59,277 nucleotides of DNA from Mollicutes bacterium (GCA_012521575.1 JAAYMD010000022.1:1-59277), one strand, 5' to 3'. Numbered from the stretch's first letter, positions 3,603 to 59,277 are shown. Notes: generated by a model from the sequence alone, not told the origin. Numbers and translations are program-made.

Positions 3603-4616
3603 TCAATCAAAATAATCAATCATCATATTTTTACGAACACGATTCATTACTTCTTTAGCTTTAATCCTTGCTTTTTCTGTTCCTGTTTTCAAAATTTCAT
3701 CCACTATTTCTGAATGTTCTTCATAATATTTTCTTTTTTCTTGAATTGGTTTTAAAAAGTTCATCATACTTTCAATTAATTCTTTTTTACAATCAACACA
3801 ACCACGGCTTCCTGCCCGACATTCCTTGTTTACAGTTTTTAAATTTTCTTTATTTACTAAATTATGATAGTAATAAACCATACAATTATCAGGATTACCA
3901 GGATCATTTTTTCGGATTTTATTAGTATCAGTAATTGCACCCATAATTTTTTTGGAAACTATTTCTCTATTATCACTTAAAAAGATAGCATTATTTAAAC
4001 TTTTTCCCATTTTTTCATTACCATCTAAACCTTTAATTCGGGGTGTTTCACTTAAATAAGCTTGTGGTTCTTTTAGCGTTTGTCCATAAATTGAATTAAA
4101 TTTTCTAACTATTTCTCTACATTGCTCAATCAATGGAAGTTGATCTTCACCAACTGGTACAAGTTCACCTTCTAAGGCAGTAATATCAGCCGCTTGACTA
4201 ACTGGATATCCTAGAAAACCATAAGTAACACTTTCGCCTTCTTTTCCAAATAAATTCTTTTTTTGTTTTATTTCTACTTTAACAGTTGGATTTCGATAAA
4301 GACGAGCGATTGTTACCATGTTTGAATAAAAAACAGTTAGTTCAGCTATTTCGGGAATCATCGACTGAACAAAAATAGTTGACTTTTTCGGATCAATTCC
4401 TGAGGATAATAAATCAATAGCAACTTCACGTACACTTTCTCTTACTTTTTCTGGATTATGAAAATTATCCGTTAATGCTTGAACGTCAGCAAGTTCAATG
4501 TAAGTGTTATATTTGTCCTGCAATTTGGTCCAATTGATAATGGCTCCAAAATAATGTCCCAAATGAAGTTTTCCTGTTGGACGAATACCAGTTAATATGT
4601 TTTTTTTCTTTTCCAT
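3603..4616 (-). CDS. trpS: Tryptophan--tRNA ligase
   Basis: Class I HIGH-type motif (TGKLHLGHYFG) and KMSKS-type motif (KMGKS). The 337-aa length is typical of TrpRS. Confidence 0.9.
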   Translation of the reverse strand: MEKKKNILTGIRPTGKLHLGHYFGAIINWTKLQDKYNTYIELADVQALTDNFHNPEKVRESVREVAIDLLSSGIDPKKSTIFVQSMIPEIAELTVFYSNMVTIARLYRNPTVKVEIKQKKNLFGKEGESVTYGFLGYPVSQAADITALEGELVPVGEDQLPLIEQCREIVRKFNSIYGQTLKEPQAYLSETPRIKGLDGNEKMGKSLNNAIFLSDNREIVSKKIMGAITDTNKIRKNDPGNPDNCMVYYYHNLVNKENLKTVNKECRAGSRGCVDCKKELIESMMNFLKPIQEKRKYYEEHSEIVDEILKTGTEKARIKAKEVMNRVRKNMMIDYFD

Positions 4617-4627
4617 AAATATTCCTC

Positions 4628-5911
4628 CTATTTTCTACTAATTATGAATAAATACATAGCTGCTAAAACATCTTTTTCAAAAATAAGTGCTAGCTTACAC
4701 AATTCTTTTTTTATTTTTGGTTTTTCCTGCATTAACAATATTTTATTATACAAGTATTTAATAAAATAAACTCTATCTGCTAATTTAATTGTCTCTTTAT
4801 TTTTAATCTTTTTTTCAATTAATTTCACATTAAAGTCTTCATAAATTAAAAATTTTTCAATTAATAACTTATTATATTTATCAATACGATAAATTAAATA
4901 ATCCTCTAATTTAAAAAGTTCACCTAAGTATTCAACTATTTCATTTATAACATTTTGACTCTTTATTAATTTTTCATTTAAAATTACAGAAAATCTTCTT
5001 TTAGCCAATACTTCCTTTACTAATCTTTGATTTTTTTTATCAAGATCAGTCATATCTAAAATAGTATTTCTAAGCTTTTTAAAATATTTATTAAAATTCT
5101 TTTGCAAATGATTTTTTCTAAAAGTATATTTCTTACCATCAAGTTTATTAAATGTTTTCATCGCATCATTATATCCCAGTTTCATGCTGCGGCGAGCAAA
5201 TTTGCTGTCAAAAAATAAAAATGAGTCTAATTTATTGCGAGGCGAAATGTAAGTTATAGGAATGTTTTTTTCTTTAACTTTTTTTGATAAACCAAAAGAA
5301 TCTAAATCTACAGCAATTATTTCAGTAGCACCCATCTTAATGGCTTGATTTATAGGTATTTTATCATAATATGCTCCGTCAATAAAAAGATCACTATCAA
5401 TTTGTTTCATTTTAAAGGCCGGAAAACAAGTTGCTGATGCAATTAGATAATCTTTTAATTTTTCGCGTGAAATTTCCTTTTTAGTTAATAACACTGGTTT
5501 AAAACTAGACAAATTAACAGTAACCAAACCATAATCAATGGGTGAATTGTAAAATTTTTTATAATTAATATATTTATCCATTGTTGTTTCTAATCTGCTT
5601 ATATCCATACCACCGTGCAATAAGGCATTCGACATATATTTTTTAAAAATAGCAACTTTTCCTTTAAAAGTAGTTAAATCACCTTCCATAGGTTCATTAA
5701 AAATTAAATTAAAGTTTATGTTATACCACATATTTCTTGCTTTAAAATATTCCTTTTGTACCATCAATGCACCATTTAGTGCTCCAACAGATGTTCCTGT
5801 TACAATATGATAATCCATTTTTAGTTTTCGAAGAGCGCGCCACACTCCTATTTGATAGGCTCCTTTTGCTCCTCCACCTGATAACACAATTGCCCGTTTC
5901 ATTTTTTTCAC
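4628..5911 (-). CDS. Patatin-like phospholipase family protein
   Basis: GGGAKGAYQIG oxyanion motif, GTSVGALNG serine lipase motif and a DGAYYD catalytic Asp motif. Confidence 0.85.
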   Translation of the reverse strand: MKKMKRAIVLSGGGAKGAYQIGVWRALRKLKMDYHIVTGTSVGALNGALMVQKEYFKARNMWYNINFNLIFNEPMEGDLTTFKGKVAIFKKYMSNALLHGGMDISRLETTMDKYINYKKFYNSPIDYGLVTVNLSSFKPVLLTKKEISREKLKDYLIASATCFPAFKMKQIDSDLFIDGAYYDKIPINQAIKMGATEIIAVDLDSFGLSKKVKEKNIPITYISPRNKLDSFLFFDSKFARRSMKLGYNDAMKTFNKLDGKKYTFRKNHLQKNFNKYFKKLRNTILDMTDLDKKNQRLVKEVLAKRRFSVILNEKLIKSQNVINEIVEYLGELFKLEDYLIYRIDKYNKLLIEKFLIYEDFNVKLIEKKIKNKETIKLADRVYFIKYLYNKILLMQEKPKIKKELCKLALIFEKDVLAAMYLFIISRK

Positions 5912-35740: not shown

Positions 35741-36628
35741 CTACTCCTTTATATTGAAAATTTCTAAAATTCTATTTAAATCTGCAACATTATTAAATTT
35801 TATGATAATTTTATTGTCTTTTATTTTTACTTTTGTGTCAAGCTTTTCACACAATAATTCTTCAACATATTTGTAATCTTCGTTTTTCTCAGATATATTT
35901 GTTTTACGTTTAATTTTTACTCTTTTTTCAAATTCTTTAGAATCTGTTTTTTCTTCTAATTCGCGAACTGGTATATTTTCCTCAACTATTTTTTGCGCTG
36001 TTTCAATGATTTGTTTTTCATCTTCTAATTTACTTAAAACTCGAGCATGTCCCATCGATATTTCTTTTTTTGTAATCATATCTTGAACTTCTTTAGGTAG
36101 TCTCAAAAGTCCTAGCATATTAGTAATATGACTTCTACTTTTTCCTACTTTTTTTGCTAATTGTTCATGAGTTAAATTTAATTTATCTATCATTGATTGG
36201 TATGCTATAGCTTCTTCAATGGCATTTAAATTTTCTCTTTGTAAATTTTCAAGAAGGGCGATTTCCATCATTTGTTCGTCAGTAAAATCTCGAATAATTG
36301 CAGGAATTGTTTCTAACCCCAATTTTTTGCTAGCACGAAATCTTCTTTCACCAGCAATAATTTCATATCCTTTAATACTCTTTTTAACGATGATTGGTTG
36401 AATTACTCCGTGCTCTTTAATTGAAGATGCAAGCTCATCAATAGAACCTTCGTCAAAAGTTTTTCTTGGTTGATACGGATTTGGACGAAGTTCACTTAAT
36501 TTTAAATTTACTATTTCCTCACTATTACTTGTTTCATATATTCTTTTTTCTATGCTGGCCAAATCTAAATTTTCGCTATTGAAAAGTTGTTCTAAACCCA
36601 TTCCTAATGCTCTTTTTTTATTTTCCAT
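35741..36628 (-). CDS. parB: Chromosome partitioning protein ParB/Spo0J (parS-specific type)
   Basis: PNPYQPR and IIAGERRFRA boxes. The HTH KSRSHITNMLGLL...SMGHARVL carries the Spo0J-type Arg/Gly-His signature. Downstream of soj. Confidence 0.9.
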   Translation of the reverse strand: MENKKRALGMGLEQLFNSENLDLASIEKRIYETSNSEEIVNLKLSELRPNPYQPRKTFDEGSIDELASSIKEHGVIQPIIVKKSIKGYEIIAGERRFRASKKLGLETIPAIIRDFTDEQMMEIALLENLQRENLNAIEEAIAYQSMIDKLNLTHEQLAKKVGKSRSHITNMLGLLRLPKEVQDMITKKEISMGHARVLSKLEDEKQIIETAQKIVEENIPVRELEEKTDSKEFEKRVKIKRKTNISEKNEDYKYVEELLCEKLDTKVKIKDNKIIIKFNNVADLNRILEIFNIKE

Positions 36629-37403
36629 TTCGTTCGATCACTTCCTTAGCTAAATTTAAATATGCTTCTGTTCCTCTACTATGAGGATCATATGCTAAAA
36701 TTGGTTTTCCGTGACTTGGTGCTTCAGATAAACGAACTAATCTTGGAATTATTGTATCATATACACGTTCTTTAAAATAACTTTTAATTTCTTCAACAAC
36801 TTCGAGTCCAAGTTTTGTTCTACTATCCAACATTGTTAATAAAACACCTTCAATATCTAAATTAGGATTTAGATTTTTTTGAGCTAACATTATAGTATTT
36901 AGTAATTGCATTATACCTTCTAAGGCAAAGAATTCACATTGAACAGGTATAATTACCGAATCACTTGCTGTTAGAGCATTAGTTGTCAAAATTCCTAATG
37001 ATGGCGGACAATCTATAATAATGTAATCAAATTTTTCTTTTATCTGGTCCAAATGTTTCTTTAATTGTCCAACTTTTGAAAACCCTGGTTCCAATCGACT
37101 CCTATCCATCAATTCAATATCAATTCCTGCTAAATTAATGGTTGCTGGAATAGCATATAAATTTTTAAATTTAGTTTTTATTATTACTTCACCTATAGTT
37201 GCTTTATCTATTAATAAATCATAAATACTTTTATTTATATCTGCTTTAGTAAGACCAATTCCTGTTGTCGTATTTCCTTGTGGGTCTAAATCAACCAATA
37301 AAACTTTTTTTCTTAAAATTCCAAGTGATGCAGCTAGATTGATACTTGACGTTGTTTTTCCAACTCCGCCTTTTTGATTAACAAGTGAAATTATCTTTCC
37401 CAT
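36618..37403 (-). CDS. parA: Chromosome partitioning ATPase ParA/Soj
   Basis: Deviant Walker A NQKGGVGKTT and the DCPPSLG motif. Confidence 0.9.
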   Translation of the reverse strand: MGKIISLVNQKGGVGKTTSSINLAASLGILRKKVLLVDLDPQGNTTTGIGLTKADINKSIYDLLIDKATIGEVIIKTKFKNLYAIPATINLAGIDIELMDRSRLEPGFSKVGQLKKHLDQIKEKFDYIIIDCPPSLGILTTNALTASDSVIIPVQCEFFALEGIMQLLNTIMLAQKNLNPNLDIEGVLLTMLDSRTKLGLEVVEEIKSYFKERVYDTIIPRLVRLSEAPSHGKPILAYDPHSRGTEAYLNLAKEVIERNGK

Positions 37404-41812: not shown

Positions 41813-41842
41813 ATTTTAAAAAAAACTGCCTTTTAAAGCAGT
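41813..41842 (-). terminator. Rho-independent terminator after the noc-like gene
   Basis: On the minus strand, a CTGCTTTAAAAGGCAG hairpin followed by T8. Overlaps the stop codon. Confidence 0.55.
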
Positions 41843-43290
41843 TATTTATTTTTAGTTATTGTAAGAATTACTTGATAGCTATCACCTAAATCTAATTCAT
41901 CAATTTCTAAAAAGTATCCATCTTCTTCTATTCTTTTTGTAAATTCTCTAATTTCTTTAATTATTTCGTTGAATGATTTTTCATTTTTTACATCCTCGTT
42001 ATTATTACTTAAATCAGATATTGTATGGTTAAATGTATATTCATTATTATTGTTTTCAATTATATTGGTTGGTTGTTCTATATCTTCAAAATCATTAAAA
42101 TTAAAATTATAATCAGGTTCATATTTAAAATTATTATCCTCATTATTATTATTTGCTTCAGAGTCAGGTTTATCAATTATTGTTTCATCATAGTTTATTT
42201 CTGGTAAAGTTAATTCTTCATCTAGAAGTAATTGTGAATTTGATAAATCAAATTCAAATCCTTCATTTTGTTCTTTATTTTGTTGACTTAACTTATCTTC
42301 GTTTTCATTTTCTTCTATAAAACTGAAAAATTTACCATGTTTTATTTTTACATCATTTTTATCTTCTTCAACTGGTTTGCTATCTACCATATTTTCATCA
42401 GCTTTAAGTAAACTATCAATATCCGCTAAAGGTTTTTCGACATTTATTTCTTCAGCAGTTTGCTCAATTTTATCAATATCTAAAAATCCAGGTTTTACAT
42501 TATTATCATTAAAAATATTAGTACTACTTGTAGTAACTGGTTCAACAACCTGATTACCATCTAATTCATCAAATATTTCAATATTTTCTATTATCGGAGA
42601 TGAAGGAATATTAAATTTATCTTTTTGTTGCTCATCCATAATATTTTCCTCTTTTCGATCAGTTTTTTTTGGGTTTTTAACACGTAGTAATTTATCAATT
42701 TCGTTATCTGTTTTTCTTACAGTTAATCTTTCGTTTATTATTCTTTTTAACATTTCTTTTTGATCATTTTTATCTTCTAATTTTAACAATGAACGGGCAT
42801 GTCTTTCTGATATTTCATTATTTAATAATGCCTCTTGTACTTCTTCATCTAAATTCAATAGTCTTAATTTGTTAGAAATTGTAGATTGACTAACATCTAA
42901 CCTGGCAGCTAGTGCATCTTGATTCAAATATCCCATTTCTAGTATTTTTTTATACGAAATAGCTTCTTCTATTGGTGATAAATCTTTTCTTTGAATATTT
43001 TCAATTAGCGCGACTTCAGCACTTTGCTTATCATCCATATTACTTATTATCGCAGGGATAGTTTGCTTTCCAGCAATTAAACTTGCCTTATATCTTCTTT
43101 CACCAGCAATAATTTCATATTTATCTCCAATTTCTCTAACAATAATTGGCTGTATCACACCATGCTCTTTAATTGAATCAGCTAATTCATTAAGTGCATT
43201 TTCATCAAATTTTATTCTTGGCTGAAAACGATTGGGTAATATATCATCAAGATTTAATTCAACAACTTTTTTATCACTTTCATCGTTCAT
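41842..43290 (-). CDS. noc: Noc-type ParB family protein with a long low-complexity insertion
   Basis: ParB N-domain (LPNRFQPR, IIAGERRYKAS). The HTH SQSTISNKLRLL...SERHARSL matches the B. subtilis Noc signature (GQSTIANKLRLL...TERHARAL). The C-terminus (FNEIIKEIREFTKRIEEDGYFLEIDELDLGDSYQVILTITK) resembles the Noc C-terminus. Lies next to rsmG, as in Bacillus. Confidence 0.8.
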   Translation of the reverse strand: MNDESDKKVVELNLDDILPNRFQPRIKFDENALNELADSIKEHGVIQPIIVREIGDKYEIIAGERRYKASLIAGKQTIPAIISNMDDKQSAEVALIENIQRKDLSPIEEAISYKKILEMGYLNQDALAARLDVSQSTISNKLRLLNLDEEVQEALLNNEISERHARSLLKLEDKNDQKEMLKRIINERLTVRKTDNEIDKLLRVKNPKKTDRKEENIMDEQQKDKFNIPSSPIIENIEIFDELDGNQVVEPVTTSSTNIFNDNNVKPGFLDIDKIEQTAEEINVEKPLADIDSLLKADENMVDSKPVEEDKNDVKIKHGKFFSFIEENENEDKLSQQNKEQNEGFEFDLSNSQLLLDEELTLPEINYDETIIDKPDSEANNNNEDNNFKYEPDYNFNFNDFEDIEQPTNIIENNNNEYTFNHTISDLSNNNEDVKNEKSFNEIIKEIREFTKRIEEDGYFLEIDELDLGDSYQVILTITKNK

Positions 43291-43403: not shown

Positions 43404-44108
43404 TTATAGGGGCTCTTTTTTTATTTTGGCATAATCTCGTGGATAAATATTCGGAATTTTTCCTTTTTTTTGCACTACAATTAATGCTCGTTGGCTATTT
43501 TCAATTGGTAATTTAAATTCAATAACTTCTTTAATTTTAGTGTTTAATTTTTTTATAGCTTTTTTTGATAAAAATATTTCCCGGGAAATATTTGCTTTCA
43601 TTGCAATAAAAAATTTTTCTTTTTTCACAATTGGTATACAATATTCTAGCAAAATATTAAGAGGGGCGACCGCCCTTGCTGTGACAACATCAAATCTATC
43701 TTTGTTTTTTCGACCAAATTCTTCGGCACGAGCATGAATTGTATAAATTTTCTTTAGTTTCAATTTATTTATAACTTCATTTAAAAAGATAATTCTTTTT
43801 TGTAACGAATCAACCAGTGTGACTTCTAGATTGGGAAATAAAATTTTTATTACAACTCCAGGAAATCCTGCTCCTGAACCTACATCACAAAAGTTCTGTT
43901 GTTTTTCTAAATCAATAGCACGCACCAAGGTTGCTGAATCATAAAAATGTTTTAAATATACATCTTCTTTTTTATTTATTGTAGTTAAATTCATTTTGTT
44001 ATTCCATTCTATTAGTAATTTATAATACATTTGAAATTGCTTAATTTGCTCATCTGTTAGTTTAATACCTATTTTTTTTATATTATCAATAAATTCTTTT
44101 TCATTCAT
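43404..44108 (-). CDS. rsmG: 16S rRNA (guanine527-N7)-methyltransferase RsmG (GidB)
   Basis: SAM motif DVGSGAGFPG and position after mnmG. Confidence 0.9.
   Translation of the reverse strand: MNEKEFIDNIKKIGIKLTDEQIKQFQMYYKLLIEWNNKMNLTTINKKEDVYLKHFYDSATLVRAIDLEKQQNFCDVGSGAGFPGVVIKILFPNLEVTLVDSLQKRIIFLNEVINKLKLKKIYTIHARAEEFGRKNKDRFDVVTARAVAPLNILLEYCIPIVKKEKFFIAMKANISREIFLSKKAIKKLNTKIKEVIEFKLPIENSQRALIVVQKKGKIPNIYPRDYAKIKKEPL
43576..43589. other. Noc-binding site (NBS) consensus inside the rsmG coding sequence
   Basis: ATTTCCCGGGAAAT is an exact match. The palindrome extends to 22 bp, AAATATTTCCCGGGAAATATTT (43572-43593). Confidence 0.75.
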
Positions 44109-49586: not shown

Positions 49587-49820
49587 AAATATGTGAATAA
49601 CTTTATTCTTTTTTTTGTTTATTTTATTATTCTATTATATTTTTTCCACACTTATGTGGAAAAAATATTTATTTTAATCTGTTAATTACATATTTTTATT
49701 CACAAAATTGTGGAAAAGTTTATTTTATAATATTTTTTATTGTGGAAAACTATATTTCGCTTGGTTTTTTATGATTTTTATTGTAAAATAATCTTAGTTG
49801 ATTAGTTTGGTGGTGGAAAA
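49587..49820. other. oriC part 1: DnaA-box cluster upstream of dnaA
   Basis: Six 9-mers within one mismatch of TTATCCACA. They are TGTGAATAA 49592-49600, TTTTCCACA 49642-49650, TGTGGAAAA 49655-49663, TTATTCACA 49696-49704, TGTGGAAAA 49709-49717 and TGTGGAAAA 49741-49749. Confidence 0.85.
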
Positions 49821-51173
49821 ATGGAGATTAATAATATTTGGAATACTTTTTTAAAAAAAGTTCAAAATAATCTTGCTCCAATGTTATACGAAGCTTGGTT
49901 TGCTGAAACAAAATTAATTTCATTAAATGATAATAAAGCTACAATATTAGTTCCTATGGATATTCATAAAAAACACTTAAAAGAAAATTATATTACTTTA
50001 ATTGAAACTATTTTTAATGAGATTACGGGATCAAATTTTATTTTTGAATTTTTAACAGAAGAAGATATCGAAAAAAGGAAAAATCAAGAAATTTTTATTA
50101 ATAATGATGAAGAAAAAAACTCTTTTAAATCAAATTTAAATCCAAAATACACATTTGAAAATTTTGTGGTTGGCGATAGTAATAAATTTGCTAAAATGAC
50201 AGCACTTGCGGTCGCAGAAAAACCTGGTATTATGTATAATCCTTTATTTATATATAGTAATAGTGGTTTAGGAAAAACTCATTTGATGCACGCAATAGGA
50301 AATTATATCGTTAAAAATAGTAATAAAAAAGTTTTATATGTTACAAGCGAGCAATTTGTTAATGATTTTATTGAATTATATAGAAAAAATAAAGATAACA
50401 ACAATTTTGAAGAAGTGGAAAAATTCAAACGAAAATATCGAGATGTTGATGTATTAATGATAGATGATATTCAATATCTTGAAATTGCTAACAAAACCCA
50501 ACAAGAATTTTTTAATACTTTTAATGAACTTCATACTAATAATAAACAAATCATTATATCTTCTGATAGATCACCTGATGATTTAAAACAATTAGAAGAA
50601 CGATTACGGACAAGATTTACTTGGGGTTTAATGGTTGATATTATGCCGCCAAACTATGAACTTAGATTATCTATCATTGATAAAAAAATCGAAGGACATT
50701 CTTTAAATACTGATTTTCCAAAAGAAGTAAAGGAATATATTGCAAGTCATTGTACCAATGATATTAGAAAATTGGAAGGAGCAATTACTAGAGTTGTTGC
50801 GTATGCGACAATGATGGGATGTACAGATATAACTTTAGATTTAGCTGCTGAAGCATTAAAAGATTATATAGGAAATTGTAATATTTCTAAAAATAATATC
50901 GAACATGTACAACAAATTGTTGCTAATAATTATAATATAACCGTTGAAGATCTGAAAGGAAGAAGGCGTGTTTCATCAATTGCAGTACCAAGACAAATAG
51001 CTATGTATATATGTCGTACTGTATATAATGAACCTTTAACAAAAATTGGTCTTCATTTTGGTGGAAAAGATCATACTACTGTTATTCATTCAGTAGAAAA
51101 AATAAAAAAAGAATTAAAAAATAATACAAATTTAGCAAAAGAAATAAATAGGATTATAAAAAAATTGAAGTAG
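49821..51173 (+). CDS. dnaA: Chromosomal replication initiator protein DnaA
   Basis: AAA+ motif SNSGLGKTHLMHA and the domain IV DNA-binding block (HTTVIHSVEKI). Confidence 0.97.
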   Translation: MEINNIWNTFLKKVQNNLAPMLYEAWFAETKLISLNDNKATILVPMDIHKKHLKENYITLIETIFNEITGSNFIFEFLTEEDIEKRKNQEIFINNDEEKNSFKSNLNPKYTFENFVVGDSNKFAKMTALAVAEKPGIMYNPLFIYSNSGLGKTHLMHAIGNYIVKNSNKKVLYVTSEQFVNDFIELYRKNKDNNNFEEVEKFKRKYRDVDVLMIDDIQYLEIANKTQQEFFNTFNELHTNNKQIIISSDRSPDDLKQLEERLRTRFTWGLMVDIMPPNYELRLSIIDKKIEGHSLNTDFPKEVKEYIASHCTNDIRKLEGAITRVVAYATMMGCTDITLDLAAEALKDYIGNCNISKNNIEHVQQIVANNYNITVEDLKGRRRVSSIAVPRQIAMYICRTVYNEPLTKIGLHFGGKDHTTVIHSVEKIKKELKNNTNLAKEINRIIKKLK

Positions 51174-51324
51174 GTGTGAATAAATAAAAAAAACAAAAAA
51201 GTTATACACATAAAAATAATATTAATTATCCTTTAAATATAAACTATAAATAAAGTTTTCCACATTTTCCACACCTATAATAATAATAAATTTTAAAAAA
51301 GAATAAAAAAAGGAGAGATAATTT
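51174..51324. other. oriC part 2: DnaA boxes plus AT-rich unwinding region between dnaA and dnaN
   Basis: Boxes TGTGAATAA 51175-51183 and TTATACACA 51202-51210, and tandem TTTTCCACA at 51256-51264 and 51265-51273. These are followed by CC, then TA(TAA)4 and an A/T-only stretch. Confidence 0.8.
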
Positions 51325-56266: not shown

Positions 56267-58708
56267 ATGGATAAAAAGATACAAGTTGTAAATATATCCG
56301 ATGAAATGGAAAGCTCTTTTCTTGATTATTCAATGAGTGTCATAGTATCAAGAGCACTTCCAGATGTCCGAGATGGTCTAAAACCAGTTCATAGACGTAT
56401 ATTATACACAATGTATGAGGAAGGATTCTTACCGGATAAGAAGTATGTTAAAAGTGCAAATACAGTTGGTAATGTTCTTGCCCATTATCACCCACACGGA
56501 GATGCTGCTGTGTATGATACTATGGTAAGAATGGCACAACCATTTAATTATAGATATCCCTTAGTTGATGGTCATGGAAATTTTGGTTCTATAGATGGTT
56601 ATGCTGCGGCTGCACAACGTTATACAGAAGCAAGACTAGCAAAAATTTCAATGGAGTTGTTACGTGATATAAATAAGGACACTGTTGATTTTATGAAAAA
56701 CTATGATGGTGAGCGAATAGAACCAGTAGTTTTACCAAGTCGATTTCCTAATATTTTAGTAAACGGAACAATGGGAATTGCGGTAGGGATGGCTACTAAT
56801 ATTCCTCCCCACAATCTAGGTGAAGTAATAGATGGATGTATAGCTTATATAGATAATAATGATATTACAACGTCGGAATTAATGGAATTTATTAAAGGTC
56901 CTGATTTTCCAACTGGTGCTAGTATTTTAGGAAATAGTGGAATAAAAAAAGCATATGAAACAGGAAAAGGTAATATTACAATCCGCTCAAAATGTGAAAT
57001 TGTTGAACATAAAAATGGAAAACAAAGTATTGTTATCACAGAAATTCCATATCAAGTTAATAAATCAACATTAATTTCTAAAATTGCAGATTTAGTAAAA
57101 GATAAGGTTATAGATGGTATAACGGATTTACGTGATGAGACTGACTTAAATGGAATAAGAATTGTGATCGAACTTAGAAGAGATGTGATTGCAAATGTTA
57201 TTTTAAATAATTTATATAAATATACAAATTTACAAACTTCTTATAGTATTCATCTTTTAGCGCTAGTTGATGGTGAACCTAAACTTTTAGGATTAAAAGA
57301 TATAATTGAAAAATATGTAGAACACCAAAAAGTAGTAATTTATAGAAGAACAAAATTTGATTTAGAAAAAGCTGAAAATCGCGCTCATATTTTAGAAGGT
57401 CTTGTAATTGCGCTCGAAAATATTGATGATATAATAGAAATAATTAAAAAAGCTGCTGATGATAAAAGCGCTATTGAACAATTGATTAGTAAATATAATT
57501 TAACAATTGAACAAGCAGAAGCAATACTTGAAATGAAGTTAAGAAGATTAACAGGCCTTGAAAGAAGTAAAATAGAGGAAGAATTAAAAGAATTAACTTT
57601 ATTAATTGCAGATTTAAAAGAAATATTATCAAGTAATGAAAAAATTTCCAATATTATAAAGGAAGAATTATTAGAAATAAAAAGTAAATATAAAGACGAG
57701 AGAAGAACAAAAATTGATATTACAGCTATTGAACATATTGAAGATGAATCATTAATTCCGGTAGAAGATATAGTAGTAACTTTAACGAATAATGGTTATA
57801 TAAAAAGAATAACAAGTGAAACATATCGCACACAAAACCGTGGTGGTGTTGGAATTAAAGGAATGTCGATAAATGAAGAAGATATTGTAGATCAATTATT
57901 AATAGCAAAAACTCATGATTATATTATGTTTTTTACTAATAAAGGAAAAGTTTATCGAACAAAAGGTTACACAATACCTGAATATAGCAGACAATCTAAA
58001 GGATTACCAATTGTAAATCTATTACCATTAGAAAAAGATGAAAAAGTAAAAGTTTTATTAAAAATAAACGAAGAAGACAAAAATAATTATTTTGTATTTT
58101 GTACACAAAAAGGGTTGGTAAAACGAACAAAAATATCAGAATTTGAAAATATTAGAGTAACTGGAAAAATTGCCATAACATTAAAAGAAGATGATGAATT
58201 AATTTCTGTAAGAAAAACAAATGGTAATAATGATATTATGATAGCAACAGAAAATGGAAATATGATTAGATTTAATGAAAAAGAAGTAAGAGTAATGGGA
58301 AGAAATGCTAGTGGTGTTAAAGGAATTAATATAAACAACGACAAATGTGTAGGATGCGAAATCGCCACTAATAATCAATTAGTGTTAATTGTTACTGAAA
58401 AAGGTTATGGTAAAAAAACTGATATAAATGAATATAGAACAACACATCGTGGCACGAAAGGTGTTAAAGCACTAAATATTACTGAAAAAAATGGTAACAT
58501 TGTAGCATTCAAATTGGTGAATGGGGATGAAGATTTAATGATAATTACCGATTCAGGAACAATTATTAAATTATCTTTAAAACAAATTTCGACTACAGGT
58601 CGTATTGCTCAAGGAGTAAAACTAATAAATTTAAAAGATGACCAAAAAGTAAGTTCCATTGCTATAGACAATAATATAGATGACAATTTAGAAAACGATG
58701 ATAAATAA
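56267..58708 (+). CDS. gyrA: DNA gyrase subunit A
   Basis: [12 protein letters not shown], the QRDR-region [18 protein letters not shown] and the active-site [11 protein letters not shown]. The ATG at 56267 lies 9 nt after an AAGGAG RBS. Confidence 0.97.
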
Positions 58709-58724
58709 TTTATCATCGTTTTAA
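58692..58724 (+). terminator. Rho-independent terminator after gyrA
   Basis: AAAACGATGATAAA (58692-58705) pairs with TTTATCATCGTTTT (58709-58722). Spans the stop codon. Confidence 0.7.
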
Positions 58725-58740
58725 TGTTTCACGTGAAACA
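58725..58740. other. parS site 1 (TGTTTCACGTGAAACA)
   Basis: Exact match to the symmetric form of the Spo0J/ParB parS consensus TGTTNCACGTGAAACA. Confidence 0.85.
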
Positions 58741-58914
58741 ATACTTTTACATTTTATAATATATTTTTATTCAAAATATTTTTGTAAACAAAAAAAAGAG
58801 CACATTATTAAATATCATCGACGATTTGTTGAAATTAAAAAATTTTTTAATGATTAATAAATTTAAATTTTATATGAAGTATTAAATTGATCTAGTGTAA
58901 ATAATATATGAAAT

Positions 58915-58930
58915 TATTTCCCGGGAAATA
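58915..58930. other. Noc-binding site (NBS), perfect 16-bp palindrome TATTTCCCGGGAAATA
   Basis: Exact match to the B. subtilis NBS consensus core ATTTCCCGGGAAAT with symmetric flanks. Lies 1 bp from parS site 2. Confidence 0.8.
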
Positions 58931-58931
58931 A

Positions 58932-58947
58932 TGTTTCACGTGAAACA
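58932..58947. other. parS site 2 (TGTTTCACGTGAAACA)
   Basis: Exact 16-mer. With flanks it is the 18-bp palindrome ATGTTTCACGTGAAACAT. Confidence 0.85.
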
Positions 58948-59063
58948 TCATTTTATTATTATATTGATATGTTAAAAAAATAATAATTAATATATTAAAT
59001 AATTTGATACAGTTTTTTTTATTTTTTAGTAGTAAAACATATAAAATATTTTTCACTAACCAA

Positions 59064-59079
59064 TGTTTCACGTGAAACA
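59064..59079. other. parS site 3 (TGTTTCACGTGAAACA)
   Basis: Exact 16-mer, 18-bp palindrome with flanks. Confidence 0.85.
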
Positions 59080-59111
59080 TTAAATTGATCTAGTATAATA
59101 ATGTATAAAAA

Positions 59112-59127
59112 TTTTTTTCGAGAAATA
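59112..59127. other. Degenerate NBS-like element (TTTTTTTCGAGAAATA, 4 of 16 positions differ)
   Basis: Occupies the position homologous to the perfect NBS in repeat copy A. Probably not a functional Noc site. Confidence 0.4.
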
Positions 59128-59128
59128 A

Positions 59129-59144
59129 TGTTTCACGTGAAACA
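59129..59144. other. parS site 4 (TGTTTCACGTGAAACA)
   Basis: Exact 16-mer, 18-bp palindrome with flanks. Confidence 0.85.
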
Positions 59145-59174
59145 TTATAATAAATGTGAAAAAGTAAGTAATTC

Positions 59175-59203
59175 TTGCTTTTTTTTAAAAAATGTTATAT
59201 TAT
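59175..59203 (+). promoter_or_regulatory. Candidate sigma-A promoter of the SRP RNA gene
   Basis: TTGCTT (59175-59180), 17 nt, TATTAT (59198-59203). The predicted start near 59210 coincides with the first base of the terminal helix. Confidence 0.4.
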
Positions 59204-59209
59204 TAATTT

Positions 59210-59277
59210 GACACAACATATATAATCGAACCAGGTCAGGATCGGAAGATAGCAGCCTTAAGATTCCCTATATGTGT
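59210..59277 (+). ncRNA. ffs: Signal recognition particle RNA (4.5S/scRNA), running to or past the window edge
   Basis: CCAGGTCAGGATCGGAAGATAGCAGCC matches the universal domain IV motif CCAGGUCAGGUCCGGAAGGAAGCAGCC, including a GGAA tetraloop. The 5' ACACA..ATATA..AATC pairs with the 3' GATT..TATAT..GTGT. The 3' end is not visible. Confidence 0.75.

Follow-up and report, generated by a model that had tools for sequence, protein, structure and literature searches.

Does an abutting pair of binding sites for two paralogous proteins form a regulatory device of its own, or is it one spacing among many within a larger array? ParB (Spo0J) and Noc are textbook paralogs whose DNA specificities have moved apart, as have their functions (segregation for ParB; for Noc, control of division, which it blocks over the nucleoid by tethering DNA to the membrane), and work on model organisms deals with the two kinds of site separately. 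ParB-parS and Noc-NBS (Noc-binding site) recognition is reported to be orthogonal (PMC7383237), and Noc of Bacillus subtilis loads at NBS only and not on parS DNA (PMC8429893). In the Mollicutes bacterium DNA analyzed here (the window, 59,277 nucleotides in full), a first-pass annotation had reported the two palindromes side by side with a single base pair between them. The reading that we prefer, with a probability of roughly 0.6, is that this composite belongs, as a single unit, to an array near the origin that is predicted to load two orthogonal CTP-dependent clamps and in which the co-location of the two site types would be selected and the 1-bp spacing incidental.

The composite within the gyrA-ffs spacer

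The 33 bp at 58915-58947 read TATTTCCCGGGAAATA-A-TGTTTCACGTGAAACA, that is, a perfect NBS, one A, and a perfect parS, exactly as first described. The sites, repeat units, and neighboring landmarks of the window are as follows.

43575-43590, unstranded: NBS no. 2, perfect, inside rsmG and ~285 bp upstream of the noc paralog
49592-51273, unstranded: bipartite oriC; DnaA-box clusters at 49592-49749 and 51175-51273 flank dnaA
56258-58708, + strand: gyrA, the conserved left neighbor of the array
58725-58740, unstranded: parS no. 1, perfect, 17 bp 3' of the gyrA stop codon and adjoining the hairpin at 58692-58722
58858-58956, + strand: repeat unit A, consisting of a possible parS relic at 58866-58881 (9/16), 33 bp, NBS, 1 bp, and parS
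58915-58930, unstranded: NBS TATTTCCCGGGAAATA, a 16/16 match to the NBS of PMC7383237 and PMC8429893
58931, unstranded: the 1-bp spacer A, which places the NBS and parS centers 17 bp apart
58932-58947, unstranded: parS no. 2, TGTTTCACGTGAAACA, perfect
59056-59154, + strand: repeat unit B, consisting of parS, 33 bp, decayed NBS, 1 bp, and parS
59064-59079, unstranded: parS no. 3, perfect
59113-59128, unstranded: decayed NBS TTTTTTTCGAGAAATA with 4 mismatches; direct-repeat family D1, 85% identity
59129-59144, unstranded: parS no. 4, perfect
59200-59277, + strand: SRP RNA gene (ffs; RF00169, 49.9 bits), the right neighbor of the array, cut by the window end

Perfect NBS 16-mers occur twice in the window (at 43575 and 58915), compared to an expectation of 0.40 even when up to three mismatches are allowed, and apart from these two no NBS with two or fewer mismatches was found in the window. 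Perfect parS 16-mers occur four times, compared to 0.36 expected with up to three mismatches, and none of 100 shuffles reached four parS matches at that tolerance. The hexamer CCCGGG is present in the 59-kb window (27% G+C) only within the two NBS sites. These perfect matches, set against expectation and shuffles, and the restriction of CCCGGG to NBS indicate that the NBS-parS pair is real and far beyond chance. All four parS sites, which span 420 bp, and one of the perfect NBS sites share one 490-bp spacer, that between gyrA and ffs. The first-pass annotation had missed the other three parS sites, the decayed second composite, and the confinement of CCCGGG to NBS.

Units A and B are 87% identical over 100 columns of a pairwise alignment. 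Tandem Repeats Finder, run on the window, reported no unit for the array, as the two copies lie 198 bp apart. The left parS of unit A persists as a weak relic only (9/16 matches), and unit B contains a decayed composite, TTTTTTTCGAGAAATA-A-parS (59113-59144), with the same 1-bp spacing as the intact pair and its A at 59128. Since this same single A precedes parS no. 4, the 1-bp spacing is older than the local duplication. With its four parS sites and a second, decayed NBS-A-parS copy, the gyrA-ffs spacer can be described as a small centromere-like array built by duplication. The sequences indicate that an ancestral unit of parS, ~33 bp, NBS, 1 bp, and parS was duplicated and that each copy then lost a different element.

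The array is located 7.5 to 9.5 kb to the right of oriC, as judged from the DnaA-box clusters and the GC skew. Of the DnaA-box-like sites, six are upstream of dnaA and four fall in the dnaA-dnaN interval, and the sign of the GC skew switches near 49.5 kb. The gene order to the right of oriC is dnaA, dnaN, a 149-amino-acid open reading frame (ORF), recF, gyrB, and gyrA. The GyrA of the window has 816 amino acids, and gene callers start it 3 codons later.

A perfect 15-bp inverted repeat, AAAACGATGATAAAT/ATTTATCATCGTTTT, extends across the gyrA stop codon at 58692-58722, leaving 2 bp to parS no. 1. This hairpin probably serves as the terminator of gyrA but is too A+T rich to be called by the terminator scan, which returned none for 58600-59277. 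A promoter or operator reading of the composite was considered and rejected, as a sigma-70 scan of the same interval gave 10 sites compared to 7.1 +/- 2.3 expected.

Distribution of NBS and parS sites in related genomes

With one genome taken per species, we looked for ATTTCCCGGGAAAT and GTTTCACGTGAAAC cores (perfect 14-bp cores) lying 0 to 30 bases apart, and relatives were read as 8- to 22-kb pieces. At least 119 stretches from at least 117 assemblies had an NBS and a parS within 30 bp of each other. The matches listed are all from uncultured metagenome-assembled genomes (MAGs) labeled 'Bacilli', 'Erysipelotrichaceae', 'Tenericutes', or similarly; the genomes are small, and their habitats are guts, rumens, and digesters. 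As the relatives are MAGs, their repeat arrays may be collapsed or broken; L078 is a circular long-read assembly. The taxonomy of the named relatives extends only to 'Bacilli incertae sedis', with one genus name homonymous in Bacteroidales, and the clade may correspond to GTDB orders such as RF39 or RFN20. gyrA lies within the same 8-kb block in 98 of the at least 119 stretches listed. Wherever the GyrA C terminus was visible among the matches listed, the sites were downstream of gyrA (96 of 96), with the first site at a median distance of 100 bp. Most of the loci listed have several sites of both kinds.

As an unselected control, 80 metagenome loci were drawn by similarity to the C-terminal third of GyrA alone. 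At a GyrA match of 56% or more, parS- or NBS-type sites (14-bp core, at most one mismatch) followed gyrA in 31 of 33 loci. The two exceptions were L160, with no more than 6 bp of contig left after gyrA, and L125, in which the first sites are reached ~1.4 kb downstream. At a GyrA match of 52% or less, a site cluster followed gyrA in none of 47 loci, one of which had a single one-mismatch NBS-like site 1.4 kb downstream. This control (31/33 versus clusters in 0/47) marks an array 3' of gyrA as a clade trait. When L204 and L205 were added and variant sites were counted, 6 to 8 of the 34 clade loci had interleaved sites and ~20 had parS only; an NBS-type site (perfect or with one mismatch) was located ~1.8 to 2.0 kb downstream in 8 of the 34. 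None of the 33 unselected clade loci had an NBS in the ~4 kb of gyrB-gyrA coding sequence leading up to the gyrA end, whereas 12 to 14 of them had one within 2.1 kb on the downstream side. NBS enrichment in or beside the array is common, not universal. Since ~20 of the 34 loci are parS only and the nearest species are without interleaving, interleaving itself is not universal and may be gained or lost freely.

Among the matches listed, neighboring sites formed 508 NBS-parS, 168 parS-parS, and 44 NBS-NBS pairs, so that mixed neighbors made up 508 of 720 compared to ~49% expected under random order. The cleanest dual-site array is that of L078, a circular 1.31-Mb long-read genome, in which 13.2 tandem units of 83 bp with 95% identity lie between tadA and dnaX (4442-5534), each consisting of an NBS, 20 bp, and a parS. 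Such strict alternation over 13 units implies that whole NBS-plus-parS units were amplified. The L146 array comprises six or more 112-bp units, and the tandem-array periods across relatives range from 56 to 112 bp.

Several relatives have variants of the two palindromes. The asymmetric parS variant TGTTCCACGTGAAACA occurs three to seven times per array in L120 to L123, L205, and L131 to L139, and symmetric variants are present in L147 (TGTTCCACGTGGAACA) and L148 (TGTTACACGTGTAACA). These variants suggest species-specific drift of the ParB site. TATTTCTCAGGAAATA was found in two relatives (L126 at ~5013; L189 at ~5081 and ~5119), 9 bp from parS, and a hybrid, TATTTCACGTGAAATA, at ~5068 in L140 has the NBS base at position 1 and the parS base at position 6. 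By their sequences, the TATTTCTCAGGAAATA and TATTTCACGTGAAATA sites appear to be natural intermediates of the kind studied in PMC7383237. A separate 'NBS-only' class, to which some relatives had been assigned, was overturned by the presence of a variant parS (TGTTACACGTGTAACA or TGTTCCACGTGGAACA) or a hybrid site.

These distributions bear on the possibility that the two site types share a locus without interacting, with the spacers of the gyrA-ffs-tadA-dnaX region being a tolerated site, close to the origin of these compact genomes, for any ParB-family array in which NBS and parS would accumulate independently. Tandem duplication would help such accumulation, and only two positions per half-site distinguish NBS from parS, with hybrid and variant sites such as the one in L140 actually in existence. 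NBS and parS follow each other in either order with respect to gyrA and the origin, without polarity (50 versus 44 loci), the unit lengths given above vary widely, and many relatives have parS-only arrays. Arrays are also plastic within a species, as L200 and L201 diverge from the window after parS no. 3. Isolated sites in the related loci number 50 for NBS and 15 for parS; the isolated NBS sites come from 1.4 Mb of origin-proximal DNA only, and the 59-kb window has 1 outside the array. However, independent accumulation fits poorly with the one-to-one alternation in L078, with the excess of mixed neighbors over random order, with preferred NBS-parS distances that are 10 bp apart, and with the occurrence of NBS downstream rather than upstream of the gyrA end. 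We therefore consider this explanation doubtful. The co-clustering of NBS and parS looks selected, as the preferred reading of a dual-site array would have it.

Conservation and distribution of the spacing

An identical NBS-A-parS composite is present in L200 and L201, two contigs from anaerobic-digester metagenomes whose GyrA is reported as 100% identical to that of the window. Both match the window through parS no. 3, diverge ~370 bp after the gyrA stop codon, and have a different AT-rich segment of ~190 bp where the window has repeat unit B. Both contigs end within the spacer, L200 partway into further parS-like sequence. Either the array after gyrA is strain variable or it is an assembly break point.

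In the nearest other species (L204 and L205, with GyrA 84% and 83% identical, and L120 to L123), gyrA is followed by three to five parS or near-parS sites, and no NBS was found among the array sites of these loci. An NBS is located 1.8 to 2.0 kb further on, in or near dnaX, and is perfect in L204 (7227), L205 (14309), and L120 (6908) and has one mismatch in L122 (6678); the L121 and L123 contigs stop short of this position. Perfect or near-perfect NBS sites in or next to dnaX are also present in L140, L141, L145, and L147. The first-pass annotation had taken absence from related genomes to indicate a chance arrangement. The outcome of this check was split and went against the exact 1-bp composite, which is conserved in the near-identical L200 and L201 but absent from L204, L205, and L120 to L123. 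Outside this species, no NBS-parS center distance of 17 bp was found among the matches listed, for which perfect 14-bp cores were required. The only other near-abutting pair among them is parS-TT-NBS at 7678-7711 of L045, an unrelated 'Tenericutes' MAG, with a 2-bp spacer and centers 18 bp apart, the minimum distance in that set.

NBS-parS distances were measured center to center, and each was counted once per locus. Among the matches listed, the centers of neighboring sites are usually 22 to 49 bp apart, with peaks at 25 to 27 and 35 to 37 bp and a smaller group at 45 to 49 bp; 3 of 285 distances do not exceed 21 bp, and 17 bp is not among them. The working lower limit appears to be ~22 bp, which places the 17 bp of the window in the tail of the distribution. 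From the scarcity of short distances, we infer that the ~22-bp limit is a steric limit for two nucleating dimers. The distances listed also show a 10.5-bp periodicity (R = 0.25, nominal P of ~2e-8, with P values inflated since related species are not independent), with a phase of 4.5 bp, corresponding to half-integer turns. This helical-phase signal comes mainly from loci selected for distances of 44 bp or less, is weak outside that range (P of ~0.02), and was not apparent in the small unselected set, which has as few as 9 pairs.

A dedicated competitive switch would predict something more specific, namely, that the 1-bp spacing was selected for exclusion between Noc and ParB or for ordered loading, with loading set by the Noc/ParB ratio. 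The window spacing is indeed the tightest seen among the matches listed, and the depletion of short distances elsewhere is consistent with steric interference. The single A was already in place before the local duplication, but the NBS has since decayed in one of the window's two copies. The spacing is identical in the conspecific contigs, an agreement of little weight since these contigs are nearly identical overall, and the nearest species, whose arrays are without NBS, do not share it. A 2-bp version exists in one other species (L045); however, two tight pairs in the ~120 arrays listed are about what random placement in a crowded array would give. The three other parS sites within the same 420 bp would, moreover, load ParB unhindered. 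A switch is thus quite unlikely, and the idea that the 1-bp spacing is in itself a meaningful feature did not hold up, given the parS-only arrays of the nearest species and the lack of another 17-bp case among the matches listed. As one unit of a dual-site array, which is the reading we prefer, the abutment is probably incidental.

ParB and the long Noc paralog

The window encodes the following proteins of the ParAB and Noc families.

35741-36628, - strand: ParB of the Spo0J type, 295 amino acids, with ParB_N, HTH_ParB, and ParB_C domains and an N-terminal LGMGLEQLF motif
36618-37403, - strand: ParA/Soj ATPase, 261 amino acids, adjacent to the ParB gene on its upstream side
41842-43290, - strand: long Noc paralog, 482 amino acids, with ParB_N (6.5e-34) and HTH_ParB (6.5e-31) domains (Pfam) and a ParB/Noc-like C-terminal domain

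That a Noc-type and a Spo0J-type protein are both encoded, as proposed at first pass, is confirmed by their domains and specificity residues. ParB has the specificity sequence GKSR...GHAR, giving R173 and G201, whereas the Noc paralog, when aligned to Noc structures, has SQS..NK..LLN..ERHAR, giving Q173, K179, N184, and R201. For NBS specificity, Q173 and R201 are reported to be sufficient when position 179 or 184 is a lysine (PMC7383237). The paralog satisfies this rule with K179, and N184 stands in place of the usual K184; the QKNR combination is common to 82 of its 120 closest homologs. Its best solved relatives are Geobacillus Noc (211 bits) and B. subtilis Noc (177 bits), and its PDB matches are led by Noc (7NG0 and 7NFU, 211 bits), with Spo0J behind at 178 bits. 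The GERRYKA and ENIQR motifs are present, and CTP-clamp motifs are kept in both ParB and the Noc paralog, which agrees with the earlier assignment of both to families of CTP-dependent clamps.

The N terminus of the paralog is short. Only 18 residues precede PNRFQPR, the ORF being the longest possible, and residue 8 aligns with residue 27 of Geobacillus Noc. In B. subtilis, an N-terminal amphipathic helix (the first 10 amino acids) targets Noc to the membrane (PMC8429893). As the paralog starts ~20 residues later than Noc, it is without this helix. Its 120 closest homologs are 344 to 660 amino acids long, and 119 of them have 14 to 19 residues before PNRFQPR, with no recognizable motif in the remaining one. 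Against the NCBIfam Noc model TIGR04285, the paralog scores 275.8 bits, below the cutoff of 315, and covers model positions 1 to 211 of 255.

Between the DNA-binding and C-terminal domains lies a linker of ~230 residues (206-439) that is mostly predicted to be disordered. The AlphaFold model is confident at 9-205 and 440-479, and the pLDDT of the linker is below 50 except around two conserved motifs. The linker motifs shared across the 120 homologs are FNIP (226-229), PGF[ML]D[IV]DKIExxAxDI..EKPxA[DN]x[DN]xLL (267-295), and GKFF[NS]F (319-324). We take GKFFxF to resemble loosely the canonical Noc N-terminal helix FSRFFG, a lead only; by this analogy, it could be a motif for membrane or partner binding that has changed its position.

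The noc paralog is directly downstream of rsmG (43404-44108), an order that is kept in L206 and L207. NBS no. 2 codes for I-S-R-E-I within rsmG, 171 bp before the rsmG stop codon. The same rsmG position holds a perfect NBS in L206 (9700-9715; paralog 55% identical) and a 2-mismatch NBS in L207 (9712-9727; paralog 48% identical). The spo0J gene of B. subtilis contains a parS, and by analogy the NBS inside rsmG could be a 'home' loading or autoregulatory site.

It is very improbable that the NBS-like palindrome is not a Noc site here but the target of another factor or a relic without a present binder, as this would fit the subthreshold Noc score, the N for K at 184, and the missing helix but not the 16/16 match, the placement of both CCCGGG hexamers of this A+T-rich window inside NBS, the second perfect NBS conserved in position upstream of the paralog's gene, or the Q173, K179, and R201 residues that suffice for specificity (PMC7383237) within the widespread QKNR combination. 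N184 and the loss of the membrane helix that defines Noc function also count against our main reading of the array.

Proposed role of the array

We infer binding, clamp behavior, joint occupation of the DNA, and steric exclusion at a 17-bp distance from the sequences, synteny, distributions, and protein features described above. As a dual-site array, the locus would work as follows. ParB would nucleate at the four parS sites and the long Noc paralog at the NBS, and from there both clamps would slide along the same few kilobases next to the origin. ParB and Noc complexes would thus share the stretch. Noc of Staphylococcus aureus occupies 8 to 10 kb around its sites (PMC5540599); with spreading of this kind here, the ParB and Noc domains would overlap at a site separation of 1 bp or 1.8 kb alike. 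Local duplication of the parS, ~33-bp, NBS, 1-bp, parS unit would have enlarged the array, followed by uneven decay. Across the clade, the co-location of both site types in one array is what appears to be selected, and neighboring centers would tend towards half-integer helical turns. At the abutting pair, most likely only one open (nucleating) dimer could be accommodated at a time, a limit of little consequence since three other parS sites would load ParB.

It is also possible, and we advance it tentatively, that in this large clade the long Noc, having lost its membrane helix and acquired the disordered linker, now serves as a second centromere-binding clamp and that a mixed ParB-Noc partition complex built on the interleaved arrays, with alternating dimers that tend to lie on opposite faces of the helix, segregates or anchors the origin. 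If this were true, the abutting pair of the window would be the most compact form of a dual-specificity centromere.

The recurrent natural interleaving at a conserved locus suggests that both clamp systems act on the same DNA in this clade. Since the membrane helix is missing, the Noc form of the clade cannot use the known membrane mechanism. The arrays raise the questions of how two sliding clamps share a track, whether they act as roadblocks or co-assemble, and what role a Noc without its helix has. They also offer natural spacing variants (1, 2, 6 to 11, and 19 to 21 bp) with which the minimal footprint of nucleating ParB-family dimers could be approached.

Comparison with known systems

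The first-pass annotation had noted no earlier account of an NBS-parS juxtaposition, and full-text literature searches likewise turned up no report in which the two site types interleave or abut, or in which a long Noc form without the helix is described. Much else is shared with B. subtilis. The two palindromes match the B. subtilis ones at all 16 positions, the specificity logic of its two paralogous CTP-clamp proteins, Spo0J and Noc (R..G versus Q..K..R), is the same as here, and noc is directly downstream of rsmG (gidB), with origin-proximal sites, in both. In contrast to B. subtilis, noc and soj-parB are separated here by uvrB, lgt, and trxB. [quoted passage not shown] The Noc paralog differs from B. 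subtilis Noc in being without the N-terminal membrane helix and in having the ~230-residue linker.

In Caulobacter, Corynebacterium, Myxococcus, and Streptomyces, clusters of parS near oriC load ParB into one partition complex. These clusters have a single specificity and usually extend over kilobases, whereas the array described here has four parS sites in 420 bp interleaved with sites for a second paralog. Plasmid centromeres can also be arrays, such as sopC of F, with 12 units of 43 bp, and parS of P1, with its box A and box B motifs. They resemble the present arrays in their head-to-tail units with a site for a partition protein, and P1 parS in particular mixes two motif types in a fixed arrangement. 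However, in F and P1 one partition protein reads all motifs, on a plasmid, whereas here two predicted paralogous clamps would do so on a chromosome.

The closest engineered counterpart is mParSpot, in which arrays of 8 parS and 8 NBS serve as orthogonal loading systems in human cells (PMC11109969). Those arrays are artificial and placed at separate loci, with no natural interleaved array described (PMC11109969), whereas the arrays reported here are natural and interleaved. The motifs, the protein families, origin-proximal parS clusters, and plasmid centromere arrays are already known, and what appears to be new is the interleaving of NBS and parS at the level of the array.
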